Shown: piece by piece, positions 1,201 through 63,800 of the stretch | How the letters are laid out: each line of letters starts with the position of its first letter | Numbering within the stretch: the stretch's first letter is position 1 | IMG/VR virus record: IMGVR_UViG_3300044710_000137 | Location: 1-64,000 of that record | Direction: 5' to 3' (one strand) | Length of the DNA stretch: 64,000 nt | Origin: a virus | Notes under the pieces: model-generated | What the model was told of the DNA's origin: nothing | Seen by the model: only the letters and a program-made list of their open reading frames with translations | Database searches by the model: none | Program-made: the position numbers and the translations under genes

Positions 1201-1290
1201 TGGCGAGCTTCGAGCTATTAATGCCCGCGTTCACCGGGCCAATGGGTGAGCGCTTCTCTGCCGCGCACCTCCATCCGCATTCCCGGCTGG
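1201..1290 (-). repeat. Family B element
   Basis: TGGCGAGCTTCGAGC..GCCCGCG..CGGGCCAATGGGTGAGCG..GCCGCGCA..CCGCATTCCCGG on + strand. Confidence 0.9.
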
Positions 1291-1316
1291 GGTGAGTGCG
1301 GCGCTTCCGCCACGTC

Positions 1317-1347
1317 CCAGCCACCAGCCACCGACCACCAGCCACCG
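1317..1347 (+). repeat. Heptamer tandem array
   Basis: ccagcca ccagcca ccgacca ccagcca ccg, 5 nt before ATG 1353. Confidence 0.85.
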
Positions 1348-1352
1348 CTCTA

Positions 1353-1847
1353 ATGGCCACCGATTCTCCATTTGTCCAAGTCCCCGTCGGCACGCCCATG
1401 TTCAATGTGGGCGCGGCAGCCGAGCCAAATACCGCCAATCTCTGCCGTACGTGGATCTTATTTTTTCAGGCCTTAGCCGGCTTGCTTGCCGAGTTAGGGC
1501 CGCTCATCGGGTTCTCGATTGTTTCGGGCGTGGAAGCGGTTAACGCCAGCCTTTACTATCCGGCGAGGTTTACGGGGACGGCGGATGTCGTGGTAGTTGT
1601 GGTCACGGCTTCAGACCCAAGTATTCCCTTGACGTTCGACATCTTCCAAAACGGGGTTTCCATCTTTGCAGTTTTACCAACCATTCCAGCAGGAGCATTA
1701 CCAGGAACAGTTTTTGAATTCGACGACTTGGTAACCCAACCATTGGAAATTCAGTACAACGATGTTTTCAATATGGGAATAAGCAGTGGATCTTCCTCAT
1801 GGCAATTCGTTGCAGTAGTCGAAACGTCGGAAGACAACACTACTTAG
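1353..1847 (+). CDS. Putative virion structural protein
   Basis: Beta-rich ORF in structural operon; start at ATG 1353 because the upstream extension is repeat sequence. Confidence 0.6.
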   Translation: MATDSPFVQVPVGTPMFNVGAAAEPNTANLCRTWILFFQALAGLLAELGPLIGFSIVSGVEAVNASLYYPARFTGTADVVVVVVTASDPSIPLTFDIFQNGVSIFAVLPTIPAGALPGTVFEFDDLVTQPLEIQYNDVFNMGISSGSSSWQFVAVVETSEDNTT

Positions 1848-1851
1848 TCTC

Positions 1852-1937
1852 CGGCGAGCTTCGAGCGTTTGATGCCCGCGCACACCGGGCAAATGGGTAA
1901 GCGCTCCCCTGTTGCGCACCTCCTACCGCATGCCCGA
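1852..1937 (-). repeat. Family B element
   Basis: CGGCGAGCTTCGAGC..GCCCGCG..CGGGCAAATGGGTAAGCG..CCGCATGCCCG. Confidence 0.9.
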
Positions 1938-1967
1938 GCCGCCCTGATCGCAACGCTGTCGCCACGC

Positions 1968-2001
1968 CCACCGATCACCAGCCACCAACCACCAGCCACC
2001 G
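1968..2001 (+). repeat. Heptamer tandem array
   Basis: C-rich 7-nt period ending CCACCG, 5 nt before ATG 2007. Confidence 0.8.
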
Positions 2002-2006
2002 ATCTT

Positions 2007-2111
2007 ATGTGCAATTGCGCCAAATGCCACCGCTGCGGCGGACCCGCCAAGGCCACCATGAACGGACGGCCCGTGTGCCTGCCGTGCATGAAAAAGGCCC
2101 AGGGTAAGTGA
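2007..2111 (+). CDS. 34-aa Cys-rich (Zn-ribbon-like) peptide
   Basis: CxxC...CxxC; GTGA overlap with next gene. Confidence 0.5.
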   Translation: MCNCAKCHRCGGPAKATMNGRPVCLPCMKKAQGK

Positions 2112-3460
2112 GCGTCGATCTCTTCTCGCCGCTCCTCAACGGCTGGGATAACGGGACCATTTGCACGAACGGACCGTACAGCGCATACTCTCCGCAGCAG
2201 TCCACTTACTACGCCTCGGGGGCGTTCACTCAATCGCTCTCGACAGACGGCGCCGGGATAGGCAGCCTTCCGGGGCAACTGGAAGTGTGGGGCTGGACCG
2301 ACCCGCAACCGCTGTTTGGATATGCCTTTTCGTCTCCTCTTACCGGCGGGGGAACCAGCGGAATCGTCTCGTGGACGATAGAAGGGTCGAACGACCTTGG
2401 CGTCACTTGGACAGTGGTAGACAGCCAGAGCGGCGAGACGGCATTCACCGTGAACGCCGTTATCAATCAGATCTTCTATTACCCCCGCAATACGACGCCC
2501 TACGCGCGGTACCGGGCGAACATCAGCGCCAACGGCGGCAATGGCAGCCTCACCCAGGTCGGCCAATTGATCCTGTTCGCCAGCGGCGTTCAAATCCAGG
2601 TGTATTGCCAGAGTGGCGGAAATCCCGCTCCGGGTGGCGGCACGGCCTCGGTTTTCCCGCTCCAGGCTATCTCGCCCGGTTCGGGTTCCGTCCCGGTGGC
2701 CTTCGGCACATTCAGCCTCCCGGATAATTTCCCCAGCATCATCTCCGCGCAGTTCTCCTGCCAGATCGCCTGCCAGAACCTGACGGGCACTATAGGCGGC
2801 CATTCGGGCACTACCGAAGGCGAGTGCCAAGCGGCTGCGGCGGTGGGCTCGCCGCCCAACCAAATGTATTATTCCCTCGGGGCGTTTCGCGCCGCAATCG
2901 GCGTCGATGTCGTGGATCTCATCGCGGCCTCCACCCCAGCGTATAGCTCTACCAATCCCGCGCTGCAAATCCTGCAATGCTCGCTCTCTTACCCGGCCGG
3001 CAACTTCCCGTCGGACTGGTACCTCGATTGGCCCAGCCTCACTATTGGCGTTGCGTTCGATCCCACGTCTTCGGCGAGCCCGGTAACCACGGACGGCTCG
3101 ACGACCATCACCAACGCCTGCTGGACGCTGGTCCTGAACTTCGCGGCGGATTGCCCAAATCCCTGTTTCTCCGTGGGAGTCTTCTACTCCGGCGGATTCC
3201 AGATCGCGGGCGGTACAGCTCCGTACCAAGTAGAAATTCTCGACGGGGAACCTCCTCCAGGTCTATCGCTTGACGCCTCAACCGGAGACATCAGCGGCGT
3301 TCCTACCATGGCAGGCAGCTACGGGATGCTTCTCCAAATCACGGATTCGTCGGTCCCTCCAAACGAACTGACGCTGTGCTGCTGCATGGTCGGGGGAAAT
3401 CCCTGCGCGGGCGGTGGGGGCGGCAGCGGCGCTTCGGCGAACGCCGGCTTTACAGGTTAA
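2108..3460 (+). CDS. Virion/tail protein with discoidin-like and C-terminal Ig-like (He_PIG) domains
   Basis: SWTIEGSND..W and YRANIS discoidin-like motifs; GGTAPY..PPGLSLDASTGDISGVPT Ig repeat. Confidence 0.7.
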   Translation: MSVDLFSPLLNGWDNGTICTNGPYSAYSPQQSTYYASGAFTQSLSTDGAGIGSLPGQLEVWGWTDPQPLFGYAFSSPLTGGGTSGIVSWTIEGSNDLGVTWTVVDSQSGETAFTVNAVINQIFYYPRNTTPYARYRANISANGGNGSLTQVGQLILFASGVQIQVYCQSGGNPAPGGGTASVFPLQAISPGSGSVPVAFGTFSLPDNFPSIISAQFSCQIACQNLTGTIGGHSGTTEGECQAAAAVGSPPNQMYYSLGAFRAAIGVDVVDLIAASTPAYSSTNPALQILQCSLSYPAGNFPSDWYLDWPSLTIGVAFDPTSSASPVTTDGSTTITNACWTLVLNFAADCPNPCFSVGVFYSGGFQIAGGTAPYQVEILDGEPPPGLSLDASTGDISGVPTMAGSYGMLLQITDSSVPPNELTLCCCMVGGNPCAGGGGGSGASANAGFTG

Positions 3461-3463
3461 GGG

Positions 3464-4621
3464 ATGCCATCGATCAGGGGATTCGGACCGTCCAATCCGT
3501 TCGGCGGCTACACCCTTTCATGGCCTTCGGGCACGCTTGCGGCCGATCTGGCCATCATCTTCGTCTGCGCCAACTCCGGATCGGCGATTCCATTGCCGAG
3601 CGGCTGGACCAGCCGGTACGCCGTAAATAACGCAAACATCAGCGCCCTCTGTGCAACGAAGGTACTGAATTCCACGGATATCAGCGCGGGCAGCGTCTCC
3701 CTTTCGATCACCGCGGCTTGGGGCGGCGCTCAAATCGTCACCATCATTGGCGCTCCGGCGATCCGGGAGACGGACGGCGATTCGCAAAGTCCACCGGCCG
3801 GCGTTACCGCGGATTCCGTAACCACCTCGAGCGCGGTCCAAAACGGGGACGTGGCCATCAGCTTCGGCTTCGGCGGCGAAGGTGCGGGAAATTTCCCGTT
3901 TATCTATCCTCCGGGGTCTGTTCTCCAGTCCGCTGGCTACAATTACGCCTGCGCTTCCATGAGCGCCCAAACGATGTTTGGCGGCGTGGCCACTCTTAAC
4001 TGGACATTTCAGCCCAGCGTACCGGTTTACTCGGCTGTTGTAGCTGTGATTCTGGAAGCCTCGCTATCTCTCTCTCTGGCCGGTATGCCGACAGAGGGGT
4101 ATCTGGCTCCCTATACAGGCGTCATGGCGGGACTCGGCGGCACGGGTCCATACACGTACTCCGCCACCGGATTGCCGGCGGGTTTGACCCTGAATACCGC
4201 GACGGGGCAGGTCACGGGAACGCCCACTACAGTAGGCAGCGATCCCTACACCGCTACGGTGACCGACAGCCTGAGCAACACGGCTACGGCCACGGGCGCC
4301 ATCGTCATTTATGCGAGCCAGCTCACAGCCTCGCCCCCGACCCAATGCTTTACCGTGGACACTCCCTACACGAGCGGGTTCACGATATCGGGAGGCGCTT
4401 CGCCTTATTCGGTGACGATCCTGGATGGACAGTTGCCCCCCGGACTTTTGTTGGATGCGACGACAGGCGCCGTTACGGGAACGCCAACGTCGGGGGGGAT
4501 TTATTGCGCGTACATTCAAATTACAGACTCGTCCACGCCGCCGCAAACGCTTGACGATCTGCTCTGCATGATCGGCGGGAATCCATGCGGGGGATATATT
4601 AATACCGGGTGGACGGGATGA
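3464..4621 (+). CDS. Virion/tail protein with two Ig-like (He_PIG) repeats
   Basis: GLPAGLTLNTATGQVTGTPT and LPPGLLLDATTGAVTGTPT. Confidence 0.75.
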   Translation: MPSIRGFGPSNPFGGYTLSWPSGTLAADLAIIFVCANSGSAIPLPSGWTSRYAVNNANISALCATKVLNSTDISAGSVSLSITAAWGGAQIVTIIGAPAIRETDGDSQSPPAGVTADSVTTSSAVQNGDVAISFGFGGEGAGNFPFIYPPGSVLQSAGYNYACASMSAQTMFGGVATLNWTFQPSVPVYSAVVAVILEASLSLSLAGMPTEGYLAPYTGVMAGLGGTGPYTYSATGLPAGLTLNTATGQVTGTPTTVGSDPYTATVTDSLSNTATATGAIVIYASQLTASPPTQCFTVDTPYTSGFTISGGASPYSVTILDGQLPPGLLLDATTGAVTGTPTSGGIYCAYIQITDSSTPPQTLDDLLCMIGGNPCGGYINTGWTG

Positions 4622-5103
4622 CATTTGAGCGCACGCGGGATATGGATGTGGTCCGGGAGATCATTACCCACCCCCGAATCTGGCCAAATGTTATCGACGA
4701 CTTCTCCCCGCCGCGCGAAGAGTTTCAGCCCATCGCTTCGGAATCCATTCTGTACATTCTGCCGAAAGAAGACGAGCGGGTCCTTGGCGTAATCTGTTTC
4801 GCCATGCTGAGCCATATCGTTTTCGAGATCCATCCGGTGTTATTGCCGGAGACCTGGTGGGAGTTTGGAAAGGCTAAAGAAGCCACGCTGGGCGCGATGG
4901 ATTGGATCTGGAAGAACACGGATTGCCAGCGGATTGTGGGATATGTACCCCTGCTTAGGCATCGGACTAAATTAAGGTTTCCTCCTAAATTGGGGATGGT
5001 TCAGTACGGTGTTAATCCGAAGAGTTTCTTGAAGGGTGGGGTTCTTGTCGATCAGGTCATGTTTGGCTTAAGTAGACCGGAGAATATCAAAATCAGTGTT
5101 TGA
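4618..5103 (+). CDS. P22 gp14-like (DUF2824, GNAT-fold) head assembly protein
   Basis: MTFERTRDMDVVREIITHPRIW resembles gp14 N-terminus; syntenic upstream of ejection genes. Confidence 0.75.
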   Translation: MTFERTRDMDVVREIITHPRIWPNVIDDFSPPREEFQPIASESILYILPKEDERVLGVICFAMLSHIVFEIHPVLLPETWWEFGKAKEATLGAMDWIWKNTDCQRIVGYVPLLRHRTKLRFPPKLGMVQYGVNPKSFLKGGVLVDQVMFGLSRPENIKISV

Positions 5104-5137
5104 TGCCGCGCCGGTCAGTCCTGCCCGGCGCTGGTAG
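5097..5137 (-). repeat. Family A hairpin element
   Basis: CTACCA GC-GCCGG G CAG GA CTG A CCGGC-GC GGCATCAAAC. Confidence 0.9.
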
Positions 5138-5143
5138 AAGCCT

Positions 5144-5386: not shown

Positions 5387-5395
5387 ACCCAGATT

Positions 5396-5440
5396 CTACC
5401 AGCGCGGGACGCGGCTGCGGCACGCGCGGCAACAACAACT
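5396..5440 (+). repeat. Family A hairpin element
   Basis: CTACCA GC-GCGGG A CGC GGCT GCG G CACGC-GC GGCAACAAC. Confidence 0.9.
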
Positions 5441-5472
5441 GATTTTCTTCTTTCACTTCCAGGAATAATTCT

Positions 5473-6384: not shown

Positions 6385-6716
6385 AAAAGCAAAATCATTA
6401 TAAGTTGGTGAGCCTCGGAAGCTAAGGCCGCCAGCCTCTCACTTGGCAAATGGGTGAGCGAGTCAGTGCCGCGCACCCTTGGCCGCAGGGTTCTGATGGA
6501 CACAGGTAGCCGCACCTTCTCCACGGCGACAGGCTCTCTGTGTTTGGCGATGAAGCGCGCGGACCGCAATTGTTCTTTGCATGCCCCTCTGGGCAGGTCC
6601 GTCAGCCACTCCATCAAATCGAGAAAGTTCTCGAAGTCGTGTCGCGAGAAGTCCCAACAATCGCGCAACTCCTGACGGGTGTAATCCCGCGTCAGATCGA
6701 CGGTCTTGATGGGCAC
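6381..6716 (-). CDS. Hypothetical cargo gene between two B elements (C-terminus runs through a B element)
   Basis: Antisense ORF between ejection genes. Confidence 0.5.
   Translation of the reverse strand: MPIKTVDLTRDYTRQELRDCWDFSRHDFENFLDLMEWLTDLPRGACKEQLRSARFIAKHREPVAVEKVRLPVSIRTLRPRVRGTDSLTHLPSERLAALASEAHQLIMILLF
6406..6490 (-). repeat. Family B element
   Basis: TGGTGAGCCTCGGAAGC..GGCAAATGGGTGAGCG..GCCGCGCACCCTTGGCCGCA. Confidence 0.85.
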
Positions 6717-6773
6717 AGCCCCACTTTACCATTCCTAGCCAAGTAGGAATCCAACTTTAGCGCTGATGTGACC

Positions 6774-6853
6774 ACCAGCGGAAGCGTCACGCCACCCAAG
6801 ACGCGCTCAGCTCCGAGAGTCACGCGCGATCACCAGCAATTCAAAGCTCACAA
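6774..6853 (+). repeat. Family B element (ACCAGCGGAA subtype)
   Basis: ACCAGCGGAA..GCTCAGCTCCG..AAAGCTCACAA; similar to 28761 copy. Confidence 0.7.
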
Positions 6854-6880
6854 GCTAAGCATCATTCAAAAGGACCCACA

Positions 6881-19466: not shown

Positions 19467-19507
19467 GCCACCCTCCACCGGGCCGGAAATCCCGCAAAGA
19501 ACCCCAA

Positions 19508-19593
19508 CCGGGCATGCGGCCAAAGGTGCGCAGCACCGAACCGCTCACCCATTTGCCCATCGCGCGCGGGCGCTAAAAGCCCGAAGCTCACCA
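19508..19593 (+). repeat. Family B element
   Basis: CGGGCATGCGG..GGTGC GCA GCACC..CGCTCACCCATTTGCCC..GGGC..GCCCGAAGCTCACCA. Confidence 0.9.
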
Positions 19594-19601
19594 GCAACTC
19601 A

Positions 19602-20429
19602 TCAGTTTGGCGTCCCACCACCAGCTATTAAAGCTGCCTTTGCCGCTTCGTAATTAGCCTCAAGTACAGCCAATACTGCTTGTGCATCAACAACCATCCA
19701 TGTTGGTTTTCCAAATAAAGGATTAGCCGGCCATCCATTTGGAAATAACTGAAGAGATTCCCCCGCCTCCAAAGCTCTGATCGGCGCCGGCATGGTAACC
19801 GCTGAAGCTGGAGCCTGGGTTACCTGAGGAGAGACCGTCCACAGCAACGAGCCGTTCTGCAGCGACCAAGAGCCTCCAGATCCAACCCCGCCCGAATTCA
19901 TTATCGCTATCAGGTTTTGGCAGTTGCCGACTCCTGGAATAACCCACTCTCTCCGCTGTTCTCCTGCTGCGTATTGCCAGGGCCAGTATCCCATATCTGC
20001 TTCAATGGGCGTTAGGGTTTGCTTGTAAAGGGACTGAAGCAGTGACGCTAACGCTTGAGCCTGGGCTTGCGTGCAGACTTCAGAGGAAACGTCCCCGCCT
20101 GTGAATCCCAACAATCCTTCCACCGTGACCTCGCACGGTTCGACGCTGTATTTCGGGTAGACGTAGGCTCCCGGCAGATTGTAAAAGGGCGCCAGGTCAT
20201 CCGAGATGGGCATCGAGCTTTCAAATCCGTTCGCCTGATTGGCGGGATCCAGATAATTGAAGGTTCCAGTTCCAACTGGAAGAATCCATCCTTTGATCGG
20301 CAGGGAGGGATCATAAGGGCCTATCTGAGTATTGGTTATACCAGCAGCTAGAGCAGCTGCGCGGCTGACAAAATTAGGAACAGTTGCCAGTTTAGAAGCT
20401 GGGAAGGGGTATGCGGGAGAGGGTGTCAT
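19602..20429 (-). CDS. Hypothetical protein (275 aa)
   Basis: Clean ORF with AAGGT SD; both ends AT-shifted. Confidence 0.75.
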   Translation of the reverse strand: MTPSPAYPFPASKLATVPNFVSRAAALAAGITNTQIGPYDPSLPIKGWILPVGTGTFNYLDPANQANGFESSMPISDDLAPFYNLPGAYVYPKYSVEPCEVTVEGLLGFTGGDVSSEVCTQAQAQALASLLQSLYKQTLTPIEADMGYWPWQYAAGEQRREWVIPGVGNCQNLIAIMNSGGVGSGGSWSLQNGSLLWTVSPQVTQAPASAVTMPAPIRALEAGESLQLFPNGWPANPLFGKPTWMVVDAQAVLAVLEANYEAAKAALIAGGGTPN

Positions 20430-20459
20430 TTACCTTGGAGTATACCAAAGCCTATAAAT

Positions 20460-20545
20460 TGGTGAGCCTCGTAAGCTGAGGCCGCCAGCCGTTCACCGGT
20501 AAAACGGGTGGATATTTCTCTGCCGCGCATCCCCTCCCGCATCCT
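20460..20545 (-). repeat. Family B element
   Basis: TGGTGAGCCTCGTAAGCTGAGGCCGCCAGCCGTTCACC..TGCCGCGCA..CCGCAT. Confidence 0.85.
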
Positions 20546-20725
20546 CTACTTGCCGAACAGTTGCACTGACCTTACGCCGTAGCTGGAGTTTCCAATGGAC
20601 ATCAATAATCGCGAACTATCCGACTGGGACGATTGGGGAAGCGAAGACGACGCGCCCTGGTGGTTCGGCCCGTGTTTCAGTCCAGCCCACCGTGCGCCGT
20701 GGCAAAAGCGTTGCCCCTCGACGAC

Positions 20726-20812
20726 TCGGGCATGCGGTAGGAGTTGCCCGACACCCCAGCGTTCACCCATTGGCCTGACTTAACCCCGCAACAAACCGCC
20801 CGAAGCCCACCT
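20726..20812 (+). repeat. Family B element
   Basis: TCGGGCATGCGGTAGGAG..CGTTCACCCATTGGCC..GCCCGAAGCCCACC. Confidence 0.85.
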
Positions 20813-20860
20813 ATTTATAATTCCCTTCCCCTGTATTTCACTGTGTAAGTAGAACTGTGT

Positions 20861-21193
20861 CTATTGAGATTTCCGTCCGGACAAGAAGTGCGCGGTGGTC
20901 TCCTCTATTTGCTCGGGGGATGCCTGCGTCGGTCCAACTATAGTTCGCGGCGCACCCAGACCGAGCTTCGATTCAATATCCTCTTGAATGGCGCGCATTT
21001 CTTCCGGCGTCGGTCTTCTCTTCCACATTTGCATGAAGGCCATGCGGACCTCCGCTCCCACCGCCTTCATCGCTGGCGTGACGACGCACTTATTCCCCGT
21101 GTCCAGATGGAAGCAGGCTGGTTGTAATGTCTGATCTGCGCCTGAGACATCCGGGTGGTGTGGAATCGCATGGATACCGATTATCTTCGCCAT
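20861..21193 (-). CDS. Hypothetical protein
   Basis: 110 aa ORF between facing B elements. Confidence 0.65.
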   Translation of the reverse strand: MAKIIGIHAIPHHPDVSGADQTLQPACFHLDTGNKCVVTPAMKAVGAEVRMAFMQMWKRRPTPEEMRAIQEDIESKLGLGAPRTIVGPTQASPEQIEETTAHFLSGRKSQ

Positions 21194-21205
21194 CTATCAG
21201 CCTTT

Positions 21206-21292
21206 TGTGAGCCTCGATTTACTTGTCCTCTCACGTTGCCATCGGGGAACTGTAGCGCGCTTATCAGTCATGCGAAATCTCCCGCATGCCCG
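21206..21292 (-). repeat. Family B element (degenerate)
   Basis: TGTGAGCCTCGA..ATCGGGGAACTG..GCGCTT..CCGCATGCCCG. Confidence 0.7.
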
Positions 21293-21525
21293 CCTGGGGG
21301 ATTGAGCGGCAGTTCAGCGACGTCCGGCAGCTCATACCGCGTGAAGTGGGAATTGCCGCTATTCAGCCGGTTCATAAAATCCAGGTGGCGCCTGAAGTCC
21401 ACCGACCGCGATCCGACTTCGCGGAGGATGGCGCCCCCGGCTAGACCCAACTGCCAGATCAGTCGCTGGTAATCCGCGCGGGTCATCTGGAGGATGACTT
21501 CATCGCCGTTTTCGGTGTAGGTCAT
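21268..21525 (-). CDS. Hypothetical protein
   Basis: ATGA-coupled to upstream gene. Confidence 0.55.
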   Translation of the reverse strand: MTYTENGDEVILQMTRADYQRLIWQLGLAGGAILREVGSRSVDFRRHLDFMNRLNSGNSHFTRYELPDVAELPLNPPGGHAGDFA

Positions 21526-22986: not shown

Positions 22987-23288
22987 ACCCTCTTGTCTTT
23001 AGTGAGCCTCGTTGCTTTGGTTGCCCGGGTGGCATCCAGGCCAATGGTGGATGATTGTTTGTTGCGCGCCTTTGGCCGCATGCCCGGCTGGGGGTTGGGT
23101 GGCATAGTAATCACGGCGTAAACCGTGGTCCGCTCTATTCTGCCGACTACGTATGGGCGCCCTTGCTTGGTGACCGTTGTCAGGACCGCCGGCACATCGC
23201 CTTGCATTATTACCGTGATTGTGCGCCCTCCGTGGAGCGGCGAGAGCGTGACGCGGTATCCCTCTCCGGGTTCTATCCTCATCCTCAC
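22983..23288 (-). CDS. Hypothetical protein (C-terminus encoded by a B element)
   Basis: Coupled overlaps on both sides. Confidence 0.5.
   Translation of the reverse strand: MRMRIEPGEGYRVTLSPLHGGRTITVIMQGDVPAVLTTVTKQGRPYVVGRIERTTVYAVITMPPNPQPGMRPKARNKQSSTIGLDATRATKATRLTKDKRV
23001..23090 (-). repeat. Family B element
   Basis: AGTGAGCCTCG..AGGCCAATGG..GCGCGCCTTTGGCCGCATGCCCGG. Confidence 0.85.
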
Positions 23289-28437: not shown

Positions 28438-28859
28438 ATGCTATCAAACTTATCTTGGACCTTCACAAGCACGACGGCGCCGATCCAGTATCAAAGCTCC
28501 CCGGCCTCTGGGAACGCAAACTCGACGACCGGTGGACGTTCTGGGTAAACGGCCACATGGAACCGCTACCCGTTCCGCACGATGCGGGCGCCCCGGAAAT
28601 GCGCGTGCTGCCCGGTGAATGCTACGTCGAATACAACGGCTGGCCGGCTGCCACATTTTCGATAATCTGCCCCGGAGATGGTATTTTCGCCGCTGGCTCA
28701 GCCGCCAACTACCACACGTTCTGTGCGGCACTCGAAGCAGCCCTATTGTCACCCATCTGTACCAGCGGAACTCCCCCGACAGCCAAGCCGGGCTCAGCTC
28801 CGGGTCTAACTGGCGATTTCCAACGCCGCAAAGCTCACAAGCAAAAAGGAGTGGATTGA
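28434..28859 (+). CDS. Hypothetical protein
   Basis: WTFWVNGH...VEYNGWPA; ATG 28434. Confidence 0.65.
   Translation: MNAIKLILDLHKHDGADPVSKLPGLWERKLDDRWTFWVNGHMEPLPVPHDAGAPEMRVLPGECYVEYNGWPAATFSIICPGDGIFAAGSAANYHTFCAALEAALLSPICTSGTPPTAKPGSAPGLTGDFQRRKAHKQKGVD
28761..28840 (+). repeat. Family B element (ACCAGCGGAA subtype)
   Basis: ACCAGCGGAA..GCTCAGCTCCG..CAAAGCTCACAA. Confidence 0.7.
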
Positions 28860-31337: not shown

Positions 31338-31380
31338 TTGATTCTCCCTGAGGGACAGGGTAACGCAAAATCATTATAGG

Positions 31381-31468
31381 CTGGCGAGCTTCGGGCTTTT
31401 GGCGCCCACGCGCGATGGGCAAATGGGTGAGCGAATGGCTGTCGCGCATCACCTACCGCAGGCCCGGT
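31381..31468 (-). repeat. Family B element
   Basis: TGGCGAGCTTCGGGCTTTTGGCGCCC..GGGCAAATGGGTGAGCG..CCGCAGGCCCGG. Confidence 0.9.
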
Positions 31469-31509
31469 TCGTACTGATTTCGGCACTTACCTCACGGCCC
31501 AAATCTACC

Positions 31510-32007
31510 TCAAATAAATCTTCCGATTGGCAGAATAGGAAATGGAACGCGCTCGCCATTTCGAAAGCGCTGGGAGAACCTGAAAAGGCTGAAGCGCGCA
31601 TTCTCCCACTGCTGCATGGCGGGAACCGGGTGCCGTCGCGACCTATCGAGTTCAGTCCGGCTCTCCCATAGTTCCGCATTGCCGCAGGGCGGAGCATCGT
31701 CGGGCACACAGAACAGCACTCGCAGTTCCGGCATATCACGATAGAGGAGCGGCCGGTCGCGTCCGGACTCAAAGAACAGCAGCGATGCAAGCCACGCCTG
31801 CGATGTTTGGCTGAAACCCGCGGTGCAACGTTTGACGTGCGTGGCCGCGCAGTGAATCAGGGTGCTGCCGCCTTCGACCGCTACGATTTCGACAGATTTC
31901 GGAGGGGGTAGCATTATAAGCAGCATCGTGGATTTACCCTTGGGCCTAGCCATTTTGTTCAATATATCCCAGCGCCCCTGTGACCACCAGCGGAATCCGC
32001 CCGACAC
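31510..32007 (-). CDS. Hypothetical cargo gene between back-to-back B elements
   Basis: ORF; true start probably MARPKGK (~31953). Confidence 0.55.
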   Translation of the reverse strand: MSGGFRWWSQGRWDILNKMARPKGKSTMLLIMLPPPKSVEIVAVEGGSTLIHCAATHVKRCTAGFSQTSQAWLASLLFFESGRDRPLLYRDMPELRVLFCVPDDAPPCGNAELWESRTELDRSRRHPVPAMQQWENARFSLFRFSQRFRNGERVPFPILPIGRFI

Positions 32008-32063
32008 AAAACCGGTCTCCAGTTCCCCGATGGCATCGCGCGATTTCCATAGATCGAAGCCAG
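31986..32063 (+). repeat. Family B element (ACCAGCGGAA subtype)
   Basis: CCAGCGGAATCCGC..CGGTCTCCAGTTCCCCGAT..CATCGCGCGATT..ATCGAAGCCA; matches 43662. Confidence 0.85.
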
Positions 32064-32347
32064 AAAAGGCTCAATGCTGTTTTGGGTTACTTTTTACAGG
32101 TATGTTTGGTGGAACAGAATTGACCCCTGGTGCGTTCGCAAGCTTCATCCAGGCTTCGTAGTCCCAGTGAAGGATAGCGAGCTGTTCTAGGCTAATATGG
32201 CCGTGCTGGTAAAGATATTCCAGGAAGGTCATCGAGATCCATACTTCCTCTCCCACCGCTCACAGGATTTACGGTTCTCAGCTCGCATGCGTTCCTGTTC
32301 TCTCAACCGGCGCCAGTGGATTAGGTTATAGAGGCGTCTTAACCAGG

Positions 32348-43661: not shown

Positions 43662-43744
43662 GCCAGCGGAATCCGCACGGCAAACAAGCGGTCTCCAGTT
43701 CCCCGATAACATCGCGCGATTGACAGCGCATCGAAGCCACAAGC
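43662..43744 (+). repeat. Family B element (ACCAGCGGAA subtype)
   Basis: Matches 31986 copy; GGCAAACAAGCG segment shared with 53253 copy. Confidence 0.85.
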
Positions 43745-43878
43745 TTATAACAAGATTACCGGCACATCCGGTAAAGGCGCTCCTTACAGTAAGGAATCCA
43801 GCGCCGGGCACAGGGCTCCAACAACAACGGTCCACTCCTACCGTTGGGAGTCCTGTCGCCTTCCAATAATTCTCACTT

Positions 43879-53043: not shown

Positions 53044-53244
53044 ATGACCACCGATAAAACAGTGAACACGGGCATCAACTATAAGGAAGTGCCCATGGGA
53101 ACCGGATCGTATGGAACTCCCAAAGGAACGCCGGATGTAAAGAAAGCAGGGACAGTAGCGGACCTGAAATCGAAGACGTCGGATGATTCCAGTGGTAAGG
53201 CGGAAAATCTGGGAGCCATGGGCGACTATTGTTGCAAAAAGTAA
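53044..53244 (+). CDS. Small hypothetical protein
   Basis: AAGGA SD. Confidence 0.55.
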   Translation: MTTDKTVNTGINYKEVPMGTGSYGTPKGTPDVKKAGTVADLKSKTSDDSSGKAENLGAMGDYCCKK

Positions 53245-53252
53245 TTATGGGT

Positions 53253-53338
53253 TGGTGAGCCTCGGAAGCTGAGGCCGCCAGCCGTTCACCCAGGCCAATG
53301 GTGAGCGCTTGTTTGCCGCGTGTCACTTACCGCATGCT
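53253..53338 (-). repeat. Family B element
   Basis: TGGTGAGCCTCGGAAGCTGAGGCCGCCAGCCGTTCACC..GGCCAATGGTGAGCGCTTGTTTGCCGCG..CCGCATGC. Confidence 0.9.
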
Positions 53339-53373
53339 TGCCTGGTGATGGTGCCGCATCCCCGCCACGCCGA

Positions 53374-53853
53374 TCATCGCGGCTGGCCAATCAAAATAAT
53401 CCGCTTCCCAACCATGGGCAGCTCCGTTCGCTCGACAGTGTGCGTCCGGCTCGCCAGCTTGCATAGATGCTCCAGCCAGGGGCGCTCACTGTAAGTCTCC
53501 CAGAACGGGACCGCATCCGGTTTAATGCAGCACGGGCAAATCACGAACGGGACGCCATGACGCGCTGCGTACAACACGATATGGTCCGTAGCTTCATCCG
53601 GGTGCATGCCCAGCACCAGGCGATAGTCTTCAGGCCCGTCGTATCGGAAGTACGCGTACTTTTGCCCGGGGCGCCCTTTGGCTAACCGGTGCCGTTTGTC
53701 GATGGTTATGACGCGCCGGAACCCGCGCTCGCGCAACGCCGCCTGGAGATAACCCTTACCGCCAGCCACGTCTGCGACCAGGGAATTGTGGAAGCGCGAA
53801 AATCTGGACTCCACAAGAGTGGCGAACAGATCGAACCTCCGCGCATCGCCCAT
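53374..53853 (-). CDS. Small SAM-dependent methyltransferase-fold protein
   Basis: VADVAGGKGYL motif I, ITID, GMHPDEAT, ICPCC. Confidence 0.75.
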   Translation of the reverse strand: MGDARRFDLFATLVESRFSRFHNSLVADVAGGKGYLQAALRERGFRRVITIDKRHRLAKGRPGQKYAYFRYDGPEDYRLVLGMHPDEATDHIVLYAARHGVPFVICPCCIKPDAVPFWETYSERPWLEHLCKLASRTHTVERTELPMVGKRIILIGQPR

Positions 53854-53914: not shown

Positions 53915-54003
53915 TCGGGCCATAGCCTAAAGCCGCGTGGCACACCAGCACTGACGAGGTACAACTCAAGCGCGCGGGATGACCACAGCCGCGTAGCTCC
54001 CAA
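53915..54003 (+). repeat. Family B element (degenerate)
   Basis: TCGGGCCATAGCC..GCGTGGCA..GCGCGGG..GCCGCGTAGCTCCCAA. Confidence 0.6.
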
Positions 54004-54011
54004 AAGACTGC

Positions 54012-55938: not shown

Positions 55939-55940
55939 AA

Positions 55941-58838: not shown

Positions 58839-58884
58839 AGGCTCACGACTCCGATCTTACCAGCCCCTACCCCTTTTTAGGTAT

Positions 58885-58970
58885 TGGCGAGCTTCGAGCT
58901 TTTGGCGCCCGCGAACATCGGGCCAATGGGTGAGCGCTTCACTGCCGCGCACCTTTCGCCGCATGCCCGA
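58885..58970 (-). repeat. Family B element
   Basis: TGGCGAGCTTCGAGCTTTTGGCGCCCGCG..CGGGCCAATGGGTGAGCG..GCCGCGCACCTTTCGCCGCATGCCCG. Confidence 0.9.
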
Positions 58971-58999
58971 CTGATGACGGCGCTGCATTTCCCCCACGT

Positions 59000-59030
59000 C
59001 CAGCCACCAGCCACCGACCACCAGCCACCG
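59000..59030 (+). repeat. Heptamer tandem array
   Basis: ccagcca ccagcca ccgacca ccagcca ccg, 5 nt before ATG 59036. Confidence 0.85.
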
Positions 59031-59686: not shown

Positions 59687-59919
59687 TCTCTGGCCGTATT
59701 CGCTCGACGTGGAATGAACCGATAACTTTATCGCATGCGGCGCAAGTCACCACGAGTGTCCGGGTAGCTTTGTCGTAGGCGACTTTAGCCAGCGGGCTCC
59801 GGTGACACTTCGAATACAGGATCAACTGGCAGTCGTCATGGTTGCACCCAGGCGTAGCGCAATGCGCGTTCTGCAGGTCCTCGCTGTACAGCGCCATGGG
59901 CCAATCGTAACCCATCTCT

Positions 59920-60000
59920 ACCAGCGGAAGGTGCGCGGCAGACAGCCATAGCAAAGGTCACCACAAGCCCGCGCGCCACTGAACACATCGAAGCTCCCAA
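59920..60000 (+). repeat. Family B element (ACCAGCGGAA subtype)
   Basis: ACCAGCGGAAGGTGCGCGGCA..GCGCGCC..ATCGAAGCTCCCAA. Confidence 0.75.
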
Positions 60001-60111
60001 CCTATAAAGATTTTCCAACCTCGACCCTAGCGGCTGGGTCAGGGAATACCAACCTTCCCAGAATTAAAACCGTGACAAAAATATCATCCCCCAAAGGACG
60101 AAAGAACAATA

Positions 60112-61170
60112 ATGGAAATAGTCAGCACTACTGACAGCTACGAGCAATCAGCCGCAGCGCTCGCAGCTCACGGTTACGAGGCAGAGCCCAAACCGACCGC
60201 GGCGCCACCCTCCGCCGATTCCCCGGTTGAACAAGTAACACCCCCTACCGAGGAAATCAAAACCGATCCGGACCCGGACGCCGGACTTTTGGAACAGGTA
60301 CAGCCGGGAGTAAAACCAGCTCCCAAGAAGAAGCAGAGCGCCCAGGAGCGCATCGACGAGATAACCGCCCAGCGTTATGAAGAACGCGGACGCTTACAGG
60401 CTGAAATCGACCGCCTGAAAGCCTCCATCGAGGGAAAGCCCGCGGATAAGCCCATCCCGCCTCCCGTGGTGGAACCAATGAAGCCGGAACGGCCCAAGCG
60501 TCCCAAGCAGTCGGAATTCGACACCACTGAAGAATTCGAGACAGCCGATGGCGTTTACGACACCGCCATGGAGAAGTACGAAACGGACCTGGCCACCTAC
60601 ACCGAGGACCGCGCCGTAGCCAAATTCCAACAGCAGCAGGCCCAAGAAGCCTCCGTTGCCAGAGTTACGGCTATCCACGCCGCCGGGCTCGATAAATATT
60701 CGGACTACGAGGACGTCGTGCAGAAAAACGACGCCATCACCATCTCGACAGCCATGTTGGATGCTATCGGCGAGTACGAAAACGCCGAGGACTTCCTCCA
60801 CTTCATCGGGACTCATCCCGCCGAAGCCGCCGAGTATGTCGCGGATACCTTCACTCCAGGGACAACGATGTATAGCCCCCGTGAGGCGCGCGCCGCCGGC
60901 CGCATCGTGGCCAACCTCGCGGCGCAGTTCGCCGCCGCACCCGTCGCTCCCTTAGCTCCTCTTGCAGCTCCTGCAACCGATTCACCCGCCGCGCCCCCCG
61001 CGGTTCCTCCCGTCGCTGCACCTGTTCCAACCCGCAGAATAACCGCGGCACCCGCTCCCATAGCCCCGCTCCGCCCCTCCGCCGCAGCCGGTCAACCCGA
61101 TCCCAAAAGGGAAATCGGCAAGAACGGCTGGACGGTCGCCAAAGAGCGCGAGCTGATGAAGCGCCGCTAA
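60112..61170 (+). CDS. Capsid scaffolding protein
   Basis: Acidic helical, QERIDEITAQR, P..SEF.T.EE, ITAAPAPIAPL; between portal and capsid. Confidence 0.8.
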   Translation: MEIVSTTDSYEQSAAALAAHGYEAEPKPTAAPPSADSPVEQVTPPTEEIKTDPDPDAGLLEQVQPGVKPAPKKKQSAQERIDEITAQRYEERGRLQAEIDRLKASIEGKPADKPIPPPVVEPMKPERPKRPKQSEFDTTEEFETADGVYDTAMEKYETDLATYTEDRAVAKFQQQQAQEASVARVTAIHAAGLDKYSDYEDVVQKNDAITISTAMLDAIGEYENAEDFLHFIGTHPAEAAEYVADTFTPGTTMYSPREARAAGRIVANLAAQFAAAPVAPLAPLAAPATDSPAAPPAVPPVAAPVPTRRITAAPAPIAPLRPSAAAGQPDPKREIGKNGWTVAKERELMKRR

Positions 61171-61177
61171 CCCGAGA

Positions 61178-61256
61178 ACGGTGATTGGTGGCTGGTGGCT
61201 GGTGGCTGGTGGATTAGTTTTCCACCGGCCACTGACCACTGCCCACTGACCACTGC
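61178..61256. repeat. Heptamer arrays forming a long imperfect hairpin; 5' part repeated at 62528-62578
   Basis: (GGTGGCT)n GGTGGA TTAGTTT TCCACC ..(CCACTGA)n. Confidence 0.8.
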
Positions 61257-61274
61257 TTTCTTCTAAGGATTTCC

Positions 61275-62522
61275 ATGTTTCCTCCCAACCAAGAGCTGAC
61301 GATCAGCATGATTACCAATCGTGCCTTGATCGTCCTCGAAAACGACCTCAGTTTCTCAAACACCGTCGATAAGTCGTATAACGACTCGTTCGGCGTCGAT
61401 GGCGCCAAAATCGGCGCAGTCATCAACATCCGCAAGCCGGCGCAGTACGTTGTGAACGTCGGACCGGCCATGCAGCCCCAGAGCTTCGTCGAGACCTATG
61501 TCCCGCTGACGCTCACCACGCAGGCGCAAGTCAGCGTGAACTTCACCACCACGGAACTTCTGTTGAACGTCGACGAGTTCCAGGACCGCGTTCTGAAACC
61601 GGCTATCGCGGCGATCGCTAACAAGATCGACTCCGATGGAACGGCTCTCGCACAGCTCGTTCCCAACTTCGTCGGCATCCCCGGCGTGACGCCCAACCAG
61701 ATCCTGACCTACCTTCTGGCAGGCGTGCAATTGGATAACAACAGCACCCCGGACGATGGGGAGCGCTCCGTCACGGTTTATCCGCTGGCGCAAGCCACCA
61801 TCGTAGACGCCTTGAAGGGCCTCTATAACCCCCAGAAAATGATTGGCGACCAAAACATCAAGGGCGCCATGGGCTCGGGGTTCATCGGCGAATGGTACAA
61901 GGACCAGAACGTTTGGACTCAAACCATCGGCGCGCTCGGCGGGACTCCCGTCGTGAATCTCGGCGCCCAGACCGGCAGCTCCATCAACATCACCGGTTGC
62001 ACCGCGAACATCGTCAATTGGCTGAACCAGGGCGACAAGGTGCAATTCACGGGCGTTTATGCCGTGAACACGCAGTCCAAGGCCCAGATCAACACCCTCC
62101 AGGGCTTCACCCTAACGGCGCCGGCTTCGACCACCGCAGGCGGCACGGCAGTCCTGCAAATCTCCCCGGCCATCGTGACCACGGGAGCTCAGCAGAACGT
62201 CTCCAATTCGCCCATCAACGGCGCGTCTGTTCTGCCTTACGGCCTCTCCACCACTTCGACGCCCACCGAAAGCACCATCGCCGGCGTCAACACCCCGCAG
62301 TCGATGCTCTATCACAAGGACGCCTTCACGGTGGCCTCGGTCGATATGTTCGTTCCCAAGAATGTCGAAATGGGAGCGCGGGCTTCGGACAAACAGGTCG
62401 GTTTCTCACTCCGCATTCTGAGAAATTACGACATCTATCAGGATGGTCTACCGTGCCGCGTGGACGTGCTCTACGGCTGGCAGGCGATCCGTCCGCAGAC
62501 GGCCTGCATCATCACCGGCTAA
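61275..62522 (+). CDS. Major capsid protein, P22 gp5 coat family
   Basis: LTI.MIT..AL..LEN.L.F, GAKIG..INIRKP, LKPAIA.IANKID, YHKDAFT, CRVDVLYGW..IRP. Confidence 0.92.
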   Translation: MFPPNQELTISMITNRALIVLENDLSFSNTVDKSYNDSFGVDGAKIGAVINIRKPAQYVVNVGPAMQPQSFVETYVPLTLTTQAQVSVNFTTTELLLNVDEFQDRVLKPAIAAIANKIDSDGTALAQLVPNFVGIPGVTPNQILTYLLAGVQLDNNSTPDDGERSVTVYPLAQATIVDALKGLYNPQKMIGDQNIKGAMGSGFIGEWYKDQNVWTQTIGALGGTPVVNLGAQTGSSINITGCTANIVNWLNQGDKVQFTGVYAVNTQSKAQINTLQGFTLTAPASTTAGGTAVLQISPAIVTTGAQQNVSNSPINGASVLPYGLSTTSTPTESTIAGVNTPQSMLYHKDAFTVASVDMFVPKNVEMGARASDKQVGFSLRILRNYDIYQDGLPCRVDVLYGWQAIRPQTACIITG

Positions 62523-62527
62523 TTGAA

Positions 62528-62578
62528 AACGGTGGCTGGTGGTTGGTGGCTGGTGGCTGGTGGATTAGTTTTCCACCA
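62528..62578. repeat. Direct repeat of 61178-61226 after the capsid gene
   Basis: AACGGTG..TGGTGG.TGGTGGCTGGTGGCTGGTGGATTAGTTTTCCACC. Confidence 0.85.
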
Positions 62579-62633
62579 GTTGCCAGTCCATAGGCCCTAG
62601 CCACTCTCTCTTCAACAAGGAAAAACCACTACC

Positions 62634-63677
62634 ATGAAAAACCTCACTCGCAACTTCTTCGCCGGCCTCGCACTCGTCGCCGCGCTTCCCTTTTTGGGCC
62701 TGGCGCAGCTCGCCACCCAATCGACTACCACCACCGCGGCTATTTCCGCGCCCAACGCGGCCACCCCGTCCACCCTGTACGACACGTTCTACGTGACGTC
62801 CACCACGGGCATGCTGGCGCAAACCTCCCTCGGCACCATTCAGACCTGGCTGTATCTCGACAAAGAGGCGGCTCCCGTCATCGCGGTCCCCAGCACCACC
62901 TCTGTGACCGTGGCTCGCGGCAGCGGCAGCTATAACCTGGCGACTTCGCCCGGCGCGCACGTCTCGGGCGTCACCGTATTATTCGGCCCGTTCAACAACT
63001 TTGTCGGCTCCGATCCGTCCGGATCTTGCGTCTCGACGAACTACCAATACCTCCCGCTCGTCGCTACGGCCACCGGCCACCTGATTAACTGCGACTCGAT
63101 CTCCTCGACTGCGCAGATCTTCGCCCGGACCGGCCCCTCGTATTTCGTCAGCCCTGCCGGCTGCGGTATCTTGGCCACCACGACCGCGACTACCGACGAT
63201 GGCATGGTGACCCTGGCCGCGGGTAATGCCGTTCGCAAGCTGGTGACCAACACCACGGCGGGAACGACCAACTTCACCTGTCCCATCAATCCGCCCAGCG
63301 ACGCGCTGGCTAATGGGAAGGGCATTATCATCACCTCGGTCTCGGAAATGTACGGCGTGCAAGGTACGGGTGGTCTTTACACCTCTACCACGTCGCCCAT
63401 TATCGACTCCGTGACCTATGCCGCGGCTGGCGGAACCGCCAAGGGCACCGTGACTACCACGGCATGCGGAACCCTTACGCAAACGCCGGCGTCTCTGGTA
63501 ACGGCCGTAACCACGTCGGGGGTGTACAACACCGTCAATATGGCTTGCGGAACTCCGTTCTATGCCAATAGCGCAAGTCCGGTTTCACTGGTGTTCGACT
63601 TCCTGTTGGGAAACACCACTACAGCATTGACCTATCAATTGCCTGGGTTGGTTGTTTACTACGATCAACCTCTCTAA
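62634..63677 (+). CDS. Thr-rich protein with N-terminal signal peptide
   Basis: MKNLTRNFFAGLALVAALPFLGLAQ; VTVARG...A.AH motif. Confidence 0.7.
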   Translation: MKNLTRNFFAGLALVAALPFLGLAQLATQSTTTTAAISAPNAATPSTLYDTFYVTSTTGMLAQTSLGTIQTWLYLDKEAAPVIAVPSTTSVTVARGSGSYNLATSPGAHVSGVTVLFGPFNNFVGSDPSGSCVSTNYQYLPLVATATGHLINCDSISSTAQIFARTGPSYFVSPAGCGILATTTATTDDGMVTLAAGNAVRKLVTNTTAGTTNFTCPINPPSDALANGKGIIITSVSEMYGVQGTGGLYTSTTSPIIDSVTYAAAGGTAKGTVTTTACGTLTQTPASLVTAVTTSGVYNTVNMACGTPFYANSASPVSLVFDFLLGNTTTALTYQLPGLVVYYDQPL

Positions 63678-63710
63678 GACTGAAGTTCTTGGATGAAACT
63701 GCTCAGGGTT

Positions 63711-63800
63711 TGGTGAGCTTCGCGGCTTCCAAATCCTGAGCGGCATCCAGGCCAATCGTCGATGGTTGTGTGGCGCGCACCTTTGGCCGCATGCCCGGCT
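63711..63800 (-). repeat. Family B element
   Basis: TGGTGAGCTTCGCGGC..CATCCAGGCCAATCG..GCGCGCACCTTTGGCCGCATGCCCGG. Confidence 0.85.

Follow-up and report, generated by a model that had tools for sequence, protein, structure and literature searches.

Why does a phage genome carry the same GC-rich block again and again at the ends of its genes? The question is raised by the first 64,000 nt (the window) of the IMG/VR virus record IMGVR_UViG_3300044710_000137, a linear record that consists of a single contig of 84,545 nt with a GC content of ∼59% and a CheckV completeness of 97%. An initial annotation of the window, made without database searches, had described an ∼85-bp multi-hairpin element, family B, with 18 copies located mostly at gene boundaries, a subtype of it (here B′) and a second repeat, family A. 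Our answer, put forward tentatively, is that B and B′, and probably the shorter family A as well, may be a polar cis-acting signal that marks the boundaries of transcription units as a stop and/or a start and that acts at the level of DNA, in analogy with the PeSL cassettes of T4-type phages.

The core motif given for B in the initial annotation had seven matches with at most three mismatches, compared with 0.48 expected, and none of 100 shuffled sequences reached seven. By an iterated nhmmer profile, 16 canonical copies were identified in the contig (E values 1e-23 to 5e-9). The count of 18 copies in the window held, as nhmmer and repeat search together gave 12 canonical copies, five B′ copies and one weak copy. 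Beyond the window there are four more canonical copies on the minus strand (66586, 71944, 74460 and 82722) and two B′ copies on the plus strand (74593 and 75564). The B′ copies were weaker matches to the profile, at 43666, 74593, 59924 and 31991 (E values 4.5e-8 to 1.6e-4) and at 75564 (E 0.008); the match at 6802(+) was very weak and that at 53929(+) marginal (E 0.78), and the B′ copy at 28761 was detected only in the repeat search, as a pair with 6774, and not by nhmmer. The five named B′ copies of the window all lie on the plus strand and all begin with CCAGCGGAA, which agrees with the rightward direction and CCAGC-type start originally described. It was also correct that the copies align as one family. 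The family is thus real, but its length had been underestimated: the unit measures ∼135–140 nt, with conservation running ∼45 nt further 5′ of the 85 bp, and the added part contains a CGTG box and a AGTGCCGC-like box. Five conserved boxes could be recognized in this ∼135-bp GC-rich block (CGTG; CCGGGCATGCGG; GTGCGCGGCA; GCTCACCCATTGGCC; CGARGCTCRCCA). The box GCTCACC occurs twice in direct orientation, ∼47 bp apart, and 12 columns (TGCGG, two C, and GA-GC-C) are invariant across 24 aligned copies. Fourteen of the 16 canonical copies lie on one strand; with B′ included, 14 copies are on the minus and 10 on the plus strand. A protein-coding role of B was considered and rejected: the frame '...SKLA..*', which ends in the conserved T-N-A, is open in only ∼9–10 of the 24 copies, and no 3-base period is seen in the columns that vary.

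We call sense the orientation in which B was read in the initial annotation, and the gene positions used here come from our own crude codon-usage caller plus a list of open reading frames (ORFs), which is not a validated annotation. With these gene calls, a location mostly at gene boundaries was borne out, the 3′ end of the element lying −5 to +38 nt from a gene end in 15 of the 16 canonical copies. In nine of them (1193, 1844, 6397, 19506, 53244, 63703, 66586, 71944 and 82722) the sense 3′ end and the stop codon of an opposite-strand gene are −5 to +25 nt apart; in the other six (20453, 21197, 22997, 31373, 58877 and 74460) a same-strand gene starts 3–38 nt downstream of that end. Copy 20724, whose downstream gene is unclear, was assigned to neither class. 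The orientation of B is no plain reflection of transcription, with nine canonical copies antisense and six sense to the adjoining gene. Six of the seven B′ copies lie 14–128 nt upstream of the start of a plus-strand gene. Copies in related contigs (see below) show both contexts, five being antisense and five sense. A search for antisense small ORFs downstream of the nine antisense copies found no consistent ORF.

The partnering of minus and plus copies, noted in the initial annotation, was significant: 7 of the 10 plus copies have their start no more than 1 kb rightward of a minus copy (random mean 1.67, P=0.00015), a count that includes the weak copy at 53925 and one at 75555 that is 952 nt away, and in one relative (contig G002) the copies follow each other in the order −,+,−,+,−,+,+. 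Between the members of a pair there is either nothing (74460/74589 touch and 20453/20724 are 174 nt apart) or small ORFs that are often on the minus strand, such as 53374–53853, with a good signal in GC content at third codon positions (GC3), and, in relatives, L007:5858–6163 and G002:1411–2058. A back-to-back B(−) and B′(+) fills the 264-nt divergent gap 74425–74688. The gap between two convergent genes is filled by B at 53244, and likewise in relatives at L007:5714–5851 and G002:1050–1182. For two lone minus-strand late genes (73690–74424 and 58593–58838), the 3′ end of B is the sole upstream non-coding DNA. Lone minus genes, divergent gaps and convergent gaps with B argue for a role at the boundaries of transcription units. 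When A, B and B′ are mapped together in the late region, a recurring order appears, namely minus B, small minus gene, plus A or B′, block of plus genes, and minus B again. Small minus ORFs inside the plus late block were seen at 5144–5386, 53374–53853 and 58593–58838, and elsewhere in the contig at 63831–64079 and 79353–79850; each has either a plus A or B′ copy 13–72 nt from its start or a minus B just upstream. Those of the small minus-strand late ORFs that were scanned had no Pfam match.

The most solid and most unusual result is a compositional shift on one side of the element. In the first 100 nt 3′ of B, GC content is 0.48 and CpG 4.2 per 100 nt, compared with 0.59 and 9.8 in the contig, and none of 5000 random samples was as low; GC is still lowered in the next 100 nt (0.527, P=0.0018). 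The 5′ flank is normal (GC 0.60), and B′ behaves alike. Gene ends without an element nearby have a GC content of 0.606 (n=49), whereas the seven ends that face the 3′ end of B range from 0.42 to 0.55. Synonymous sites account for most of the shift. Over the final 40 codons of nine flanked genes GC3 is 0.41 versus 0.63 in the rest, with first and second positions at 0.53 versus 0.57 and 0.47 versus 0.50, respectively, and nine genes that lie downstream of sense copies have a GC3 of 0.48 in their initial 40 codons versus 0.69. The base most reduced is the G of the element's own sense strand, in antisense and sense contexts alike. In antisense contexts the coding-strand C at third positions falls from 0.42 to 0.20 while G there is nearly unchanged; in sense contexts G at third positions falls from 0.30 to 0.22. 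Since the same strand of the element loses G in both contexts, the asymmetry follows the element and not the gene, and the replacement of third-position C by T and A argues against simple deamination. The relatives agree, the ten copies there having GC contents of 0.473, 0.568 and 0.639 in successive 100-nt steps on the 3′ side and 0.56–0.59 on the 5′ side. In family A, 28 copies defined by a regular expression have a 3′ flank GC of 0.477 versus 0.582, although ∼4 of these matches, kept in the flank statistics, appear by eye to be false (25054, 60316, 62890 and the B′-internal 75583). Thus, the one-sided CpG shadow that had been ascribed to both families was confirmed.

Family A itself reads ACCAGC, a variable stem-loop and GGCAnCAAC, and has at least 24 sites in the window (for example, 5399–5436(+), 23933–23970(+), 40013–40050(+) and 49958–49993(−)). 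Most are in sense orientation, 20–40 nt upstream of gene starts. Five copies, at 9940(+), 10215(−), 10489(+), 11073(−) and 11464(+), lie within a giant ORF of 3397 amino acids (aa).

Real copies of B were found in three distantly related IMG/VR contigs by a gapped motif scan and a 16-mer scan. The 16-mer scan gave 12 loci, two with real copies (L007 and L012), and the gapped scan 13 loci, two of them real (L007 and L016) and two weak; one further motif-scan locus was not counted, as nhmmer aligned only positions 2–34 of the ∼100 profile positions there (21.8 bits). With a sequence-only covariance model, seven copies were found in the 17-kb contig G002, one copy and a fragment in G003, and one copy in G004. 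G002 is a distant relative by its portal and coat fragments (29–44% identical in tblastx), and B is common to the relatives and this phage while gene order is different. The 16 canonical copies have a mean pairwise identity of 0.59, nearest neighbours reaching at most 0.80; their identity to the copies of relatives is 0.57 for the antisense type and 0.56 for the sense type. Because identity within the genome equals identity to a distant relative, the family is old and conserved and had no recent burst; selection must maintain the invariant boxes, and the near equality of 0.59 and 0.57 indicates purifying selection over a long time. Among B′ copies identity is 0.63, compared with 0.42 between B′ and canonical copies, and B′ is a diverged, strand-specific relative of canonical B.

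A motif scan of genome contigs gave at least 120 loci, with one real copy among the matches listed. This strong copy (80.5 bits; locus L118) is in a Bryobacteraceae metagenome-assembled genome (contig DATGGM010000106.1, region 4511–5959). It has a DUF5681 gene on one side and on the other an aldo-keto reductase gene, which starts 135 nt downstream of it and runs in the same direction. Just upstream of it we observed the CCAGCGGAA motif, with which B′ starts, and a palindrome, TTAGCGTTA...TAACGCTAA. The locus may be the edge of a prophage remnant, given the phage-type DUF5681 gene beside the copy. The reductase gene was found in 133 of 201 genomes of the family, with no match reaching into the B region, and nine loci orthologous to the reductase locus have no B copy. 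Among 121 Bryobacteraceae genomes, for the part of the first-look candidates that was scored, eight had any match and one a strong match; the seven others reached 21–27 bits, and the two best of those checked are inside long ORFs. With one strong copy in 121 genomes of the family, a repeat of host chromosomes was rejected, and B is an element of the phage lineage. This soil-phage lineage probably infects Acidobacteriota.

Conservation in B resides in the sequence and not in an RNA fold, for which there is no good evidence. No Rfam family matched a B copy at gathering score in the whole window, nor at E≤10 in 19400–23200 (five copies) and in L002:1–1500 (three copies), so that the comparison with known RNAs proposed in the initial annotation did not assign B to any of them. 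The term multi-hairpin element fared poorly. RNAalifold gave four consensus pairs for the 16 copies, none of them compensated, and folding energies were like those of dinucleotide shuffles on the strand originally read (mean z −0.26, z≤−2 in 1 of 16 copies) as well as on the opposite one (mean z −0.19, z≤−2 in 2 of 16). Two structures were put forward from single-sequence folds, namely a nested 3′ hairpin (GGTG..CGGGC-loop-GCCCG..CACC) and, as an alternative, an H-type pseudoknot (TCACC/GGTGA with GCCC/GGGC). Judged on the aligned copies, this hairpin had 62.1% of cells paired, compared with 58.5±1.4% in shuffles (3 of 500 reached it), and a marginal covariation score of 0.167 compared with 0.125 (10 of 500); it should be noted that with this tool related sequences can exceed shuffles. 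The pseudoknot was at chance (185 of 500 shuffles equal or better) and was rejected. A short GC-rich stem of variable sequence with a 7-nt loop lies just 5′ of the last box in about half of the copies, its register to that box differing between subgroups.

Conservation without structure, fixed polarity, coupling to starts and stops and a downstream zone that melts easily and gives G-poor, unstructured RNA fit a one-directional signal that is read as DNA or on the non-template strand, and B appears to be read as a DNA sequence and not as folded RNA. The steps that involve RNA polymerase we infer as follows. The GC-rich block would stop or insulate transcription that comes from its 5′ side; the 3′ box, together with the TAnAAT-like motif of the better copies, would allow RNA polymerase to begin, or begin again, in the outward direction, where the zone melts easily and is unstructured; and a phage factor would probably assist, the candidates being three LuxR-type proteins or a NusG-like protein. 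Canonical copies would then act leftward: on minus genes, where units converge, and in antisense where late genes end. B′ and A copies would act rightward into late genes, and back-to-back pairs would be divergent control regions. Canonical intrinsic terminators were not enriched (10 compared with 8.7 expected; 14 compared with 14.3), which means that other stop signals are needed; one copy had one terminator-like match (19525–19502, minus), and the other scanned copies had none. A near-consensus sigma-70 pair was found back-to-back at 23602–23702 (TTGACA-18-TATACT on the plus and TTGACG-18-TACAAT on the minus strand), and this promoter pair lies between the leftward and rightward early blocks. 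With no sigma-70 promoter at the scanned B copies and no excess of terminators, B would need another factor, for which the LuxR-type and NusG-like proteins would be the obvious candidates.

Several observations weigh against a boundary signal of this kind. No stem of B is followed by a U-tract, so B is not a canonical intrinsic terminator, and a sigma-70 −35/−10 pair was absent from the B copies in the scanned regions 1–8000 and 19000–33000. The −10-like hexamer is good in only ∼6–7 of 24 copies, the T-N-A core alone being widely kept. In copies 21197 and 28761 a Shine–Dalgarno (SD) sequence and start codon follow directly on the last box and leave no room for a start site, which places these copies inside transcripts. 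The nine to ten antisense copies at late genes have no minus gene nearby and may need either antisense RNA or a pure stop or insulator role. Finally, the evidence from gene context rests on the crude codon-usage gene map, and no RNA run is listed among the sequencing runs that contain the contig. Other promoter types were considered by eye: for sigma-54, extracytoplasmic function (ECF) sigma and T7/T3-type promoters, spacing or conserved positions did not agree with the consensus sequences, and a single-subunit RNA polymerase was not found among the best 25 of 26 Pfam families in the 105 predicted proteins.

An unlikely alternative is that B is a loading or pause site for a NusG-like factor, read on non-template DNA or nascent RNA in the manner of ops/JUMPstart for RfaH, in which case the G-poor zone would be a Rho-sensitive stretch passed only by modified polymerase. 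A NusG-family gene (41296–41865) does precede the late block, most A, B′ and sense B copies stand sense-oriented just upstream of genes, the copies 21197 and 28761 must be inside transcripts, several late genes lack an SD sequence, and the downstream sense strand, G-poor and C-retaining, is rut-like. The invariant TGCGG is followed by TAG in 4 of the 16 contig copies and by TAA in one, which may be a likeness to the ops core. However, there is free variation in the positions that follow TGCGG, nine canonical copies run antisense to their surrounding genes, and the back-to-back elements at 74460/74589 leave no space for upstream promoters. Nor do we give much weight to the idea that B is mainly a mobile or recombination element, with regulation secondary, its pairs being the ends of minus-gene cassettes or homology 'linkers' for module exchange. 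This would account for the significant minus/plus pairing, the strict alternation of orientation in G002, the minus ORFs enclosed at 53374–53853, L007:5858–6163 and G002:1411–2058, the single chromosomal copy in Bryobacteraceae beside nine orthologous loci without B, the sharing of B by phages of different gene order and the small tyrosine recombinase that is encoded. Distinct left and right ends, as the initial annotation had suggested, are nevertheless not supported in the sense of a transposon: no terminal inverted repeat was seen within a unit, two pairs showed no target duplication by eye, no transposase was present among the best 25 of 26 Pfam families in the 105 proteins, and copies only ∼59% identical speak against a recent burst. 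Invariant boxes and the flanking synonymous-site zone argue for a selected function, and a second soil run, for which contigs only were compared, showed no difference in presence or absence.

If B were instead a structured RNA, that is, an mRNA processing or stability signal like the RNase III sites in T7, a small RNA or a ribozyme, the 7-nt-loop stem before the last box would be in its favour, as it is present in about half of the copies with some changes on both sides (GGCCTC/GAGGCT versus GGCTTC/GAAGCT). The nested hairpin above shuffles (3 and 10 of 500 for paired fraction and covariation) and several G.U pairs that fit the sense strand only (UG in 8 of 24 copies at pair 112–131) point the same way. 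But the four uncompensated RNAalifold pairs, the 38% of cells left unpaired in the best helix model, a pseudoknot no better than shuffles, the scarcity of copies with z≤−2 (one sense, two antisense of 16), the lack of an Rfam match and the fact that neither strand is consistently co-transcribed with its neighbours make this quite improbable. We would be surprised if B turned out to have another function as DNA, for instance as an origin-like module, as a strong site for gyrase or as the target of a nucleoid or partition protein. A polar arrangement of GC-rich recognition block and A+T-rich zone, the direct repeat of GCTCACC at ∼47 bp and the 14 of 16 canonical copies on one strand recall such sites. 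However, two dozen origins in 84 kb are implausible, the strand bias is gone once B′ is counted (14 minus, 10 plus), a G-poor sense strand would disfavour R-loop priming, and the close link of B to start and stop codons suggests a role in gene expression.

Individual copies in the window, given by full extent with the core in brackets and found by nhmmer unless stated otherwise, are placed as follows. At the left end, canonical copy 1183..1325 (1193–1288, −; nhmmer E 1e-23 and alignment) has its 3′ end 12 nt from the stop of gene 599–1180(+), to which it is antisense, and a heptamer array comes next on the plus strand. Canonical copy 1834..1974 (1844–1937, −; nhmmer and repeat families) overlaps the TAG stop of gene 1296–1847(+) and is in a ∼652-nt tandem unit common to copy 1193; three such units occupy 599–2110, each combining a ∼180-aa gene with a B copy and a heptamer array. 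Copies 1193 and 1844 are therefore due to tandem duplication and are not independent placements. The canonical copy of the GGCTGGCGGCC subgroup at 6387..6525 (6397–6488, −; nhmmer and repeat family), 12 nt past the stop of gene 5473–6384(+), is the left partner of B′ 6774..6858 (+; repeat family and weak nhmmer match), which lies 22 nt upstream of gene 6881–8902(+). Canonical copy 19469..19611 (19506–19601, +) abuts with its 3′ end the TGA stop of gene 19602–20429(−), in antisense; at the other end of this gene, canonical copy 20443..20587 (20453–20550, −) is in sense, 23 nt upstream of the start, and back-to-back with its right partner, canonical copy 20687..20831 (20724–20821, +). A diverged canonical copy at 21187..21332 (21197–21295, −) has an SD-like sequence and ATG directly after the conserved 3′ box, and canonical copy 22987..23126 (22997–23089, −) is 10 nt upstream of the start of gene 22435–22986(−).

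Further to the right, the most diverged B′ copy, 28761..28845 (+; repeat families), is directly followed by an SD sequence (AAGGAG) and an ATG at 28861. Canonical copy 31363..31506 (31373–31469, −), 35 nt upstream of the start of gene 31011–31337(−), is the left partner of B′ 31986..32070 (+; E 1.6e-4). B′ 43662..43750 (+; E 4.5e-8) is 128 nt upstream of gene 43879–44505(+). Canonical copy 53234..53380 (53244–53343, −) fills the gap between the convergent genes 52780–53244(+) and 53374–53853(−), the latter with GC contents of 0.63, 0.45 and 0.72 at the three codon positions, and is followed by a possible degenerate B′ at 53925..54010 (+), a weak candidate aligned and matched by nhmmer only at E 0.78. 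Canonical copy 58867..59009 (58877–58972, −) lies 38 nt upstream of the small gene 58593–58838(−), has a heptamer array on its 5′ side and is the left partner of B′ 59920..60007 (+), 104 nt upstream of the scaffold gene 60112–61170(+). The last canonical copy of the window, 63693..63837 (63703–63800, −), is 25 nt past the stop of gene 62634–63677(+) and has on its right side a possible ORF, 63831–64079(−), and a family A copy at 64131(+).

The phage that carries these elements has head genes of P22 type, including a portal (55941–58322), the scaffold gene and a coat protein (61275–62522), and also encodes tail and ejection proteins. Its largest ORF, 8902–19095(+), codes for a 3397-aa DarB-like protein with methyltransferase and helicase parts, which ruled out an N4-type giant virion RNA polymerase; residues 920–2699 match DarB-like antirestriction/methyltransferase/helicase families, and residues 592–680 a 2′-5′ RNA ligase/Acb1-like (2H phosphoesterase) domain. 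The Pfam scan of 105 predicted proteins gave one Phage_integrase, which is the small tyrosine recombinase, one Endonuclease_7 and proteins with a helix-turn-helix (HTH). The NusG-family gene 41296–41865(+) (PF02357, 56.8 bits; phrog 'transcription antiterminator') is located ahead of the terminase/late block, and three genes for GerE/LuxR-type HTH proteins, 45575–45979(−), 46101–46400(+) and 46898–47320(+), lie between two terminase parts. A 115-nt tRNA at 23479–23593(−) was reported by Rfam (50.5 bits) and is absent from the ARAGORN output, in which a second tRNA, at 40711–40783(+), has an undetermined anticodon. Arrays of 4–5 heptamers (CCAGCCA/GGCTGGT) were seen with the C-rich strand at 647–695, 1299–1347, 1953–2001, 48016–48064 and 58982–59030, and with the G-rich strand at 40552–40604, 61174–61226 and 62525–62577. 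The C-rich arrays stop a few bases 5′ of ATG codons without an SD sequence; the G-rich ones come after the scaffold and coat stop codons, with a small hairpin at the end. The heptamer repeat includes GCTGGTGG, the Chi sequence of Escherichia coli, and the Logan contigs of the source run are broken at these arrays.

The contig is present in two soil metagenome runs. When the contigs of two soil DNA runs were aligned to 44001–64000, no variant was found at B copies; one soil-run contig matched 58884–59029 with 24 differences and is probably another B copy, and the second run had identical short contigs only. No close relatives were found in the GenBank phage collection by megablast with the giant gene, nor in IMG/VR by capsid peptides.

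Soil Acidobacteriota phages are almost unstudied and their gene-control signals unknown. The element described here is found at nearly every module boundary and is better conserved than the proteins encoded by its carrier phages. To our knowledge, no regulatory element of a phage has been described that leaves such a footprint on the genes beside it, and this strand-specific footprint in codon choice offers a computational handle for finding signals of this kind in other uncultured phages. It also raises the question of what reads a 135-bp polar array of boxes. If the antisense copies were promoters, late genes would be controlled by a network of antisense RNA; if they were stop signals, they would represent a type of terminator without a U-tract. 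A more speculative idea, which we regard as doubtful, is that A, B and B′ form one 'punctuation' system, read by a phage factor (NusG-like or LuxR-like), which would launch or license one-directional transcription, provide about ten antisense promoters at the 3′ ends of late genes and have reshaped 100–200 nt of synonymous sites toward a G-poor transcribed strand.

A full-text search found no description of such elements in the literature, and neither did the paper on the Tunturi viruses contain one (main texts). Several known systems resemble B in part. Stoperators of L5-type mycobacteriophages are 13–14-bp repressor sites that have one orientation relative to transcription. They have in common with B that many asymmetric, oriented copies are dispersed over the short intergenic spaces of a temperate phage, with a proposed effect on passing transcription. 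B, however, is ∼135 bp long and has several boxes, and relative to genes both orientations occur. The ops element, 12 nt long with the core GGCGGTAGnnTG, occurs once per operon and recruits NusG paralogues of the RfaH type. Like ops/JUMPstart, B is a conserved element upstream of operons in a system with a NusG-family factor, which this phage encodes; by eye, however, GCGGTAG is found in 4 of 16 copies, and many copies are antisense. Repetitive extragenic palindromic (REP) sequences, bacterial interspersed mosaic elements (BIMEs) and miniature inverted-repeat transposable elements (MITEs) are likewise repeats dispersed between genes that have a similar size and are palindromic in part. In contrast to REP and BIME, B is essentially absent from the chromosomes of the putative host family (one strong copy in 121 genomes), and in contrast to MITEs its copies are old and diverged, with no terminal inverted repeats or target duplications seen.

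The closest likeness is with PeSLs (promoter-early stem-loops), which are described as ∼100-bp composite promoter/stem-loop cassettes at gene junctions of T4-type phages, with several subclasses, adjacent small ORFs and a proposed role as recombination linkers (Arbiol et al. 2010, PMC2839356; Comeau et al. 2014, PMC4122927). Both PeSLs and B are conserved composite motifs of ∼100 bp with tens of copies at phage gene junctions; in both, the gene next to the motif has its stop codon in A+T-rich DNA, several subclasses exist, small ORFs of unknown function are adjacent, and a GC-rich stem-loop is variably placed, which in B is a local stem in about half of the copies and in PeSLs a terminator or attenuator. 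The two also differ. PeSLs have clear sigma-70 −35 and −10 boxes and run in the same direction as the genes, reaching from the stop codon upstream to the SD sequence and ATG downstream, whereas B has no −35 box and a weak −10-like motif, and in 9 of its 16 canonical copies the direction is opposite to that of both flanking genes or of the adjoining gene. PeSLs are also places of indels and replacements between close relatives and form mini-circles. B shows no sequence similarity to PeSLs, has a longer GC-rich body of multiple boxes, orientation-specific subtypes and a one-sided synonymous A+T shift over 100–200 nt, and is carried by a phage with head genes of P22 type and not of T4 type. Thus, B lacks the sigma-70 promoter and the co-orientation with genes that characterize PeSLs, and is an analogue of these cassettes rather than a member of their family.

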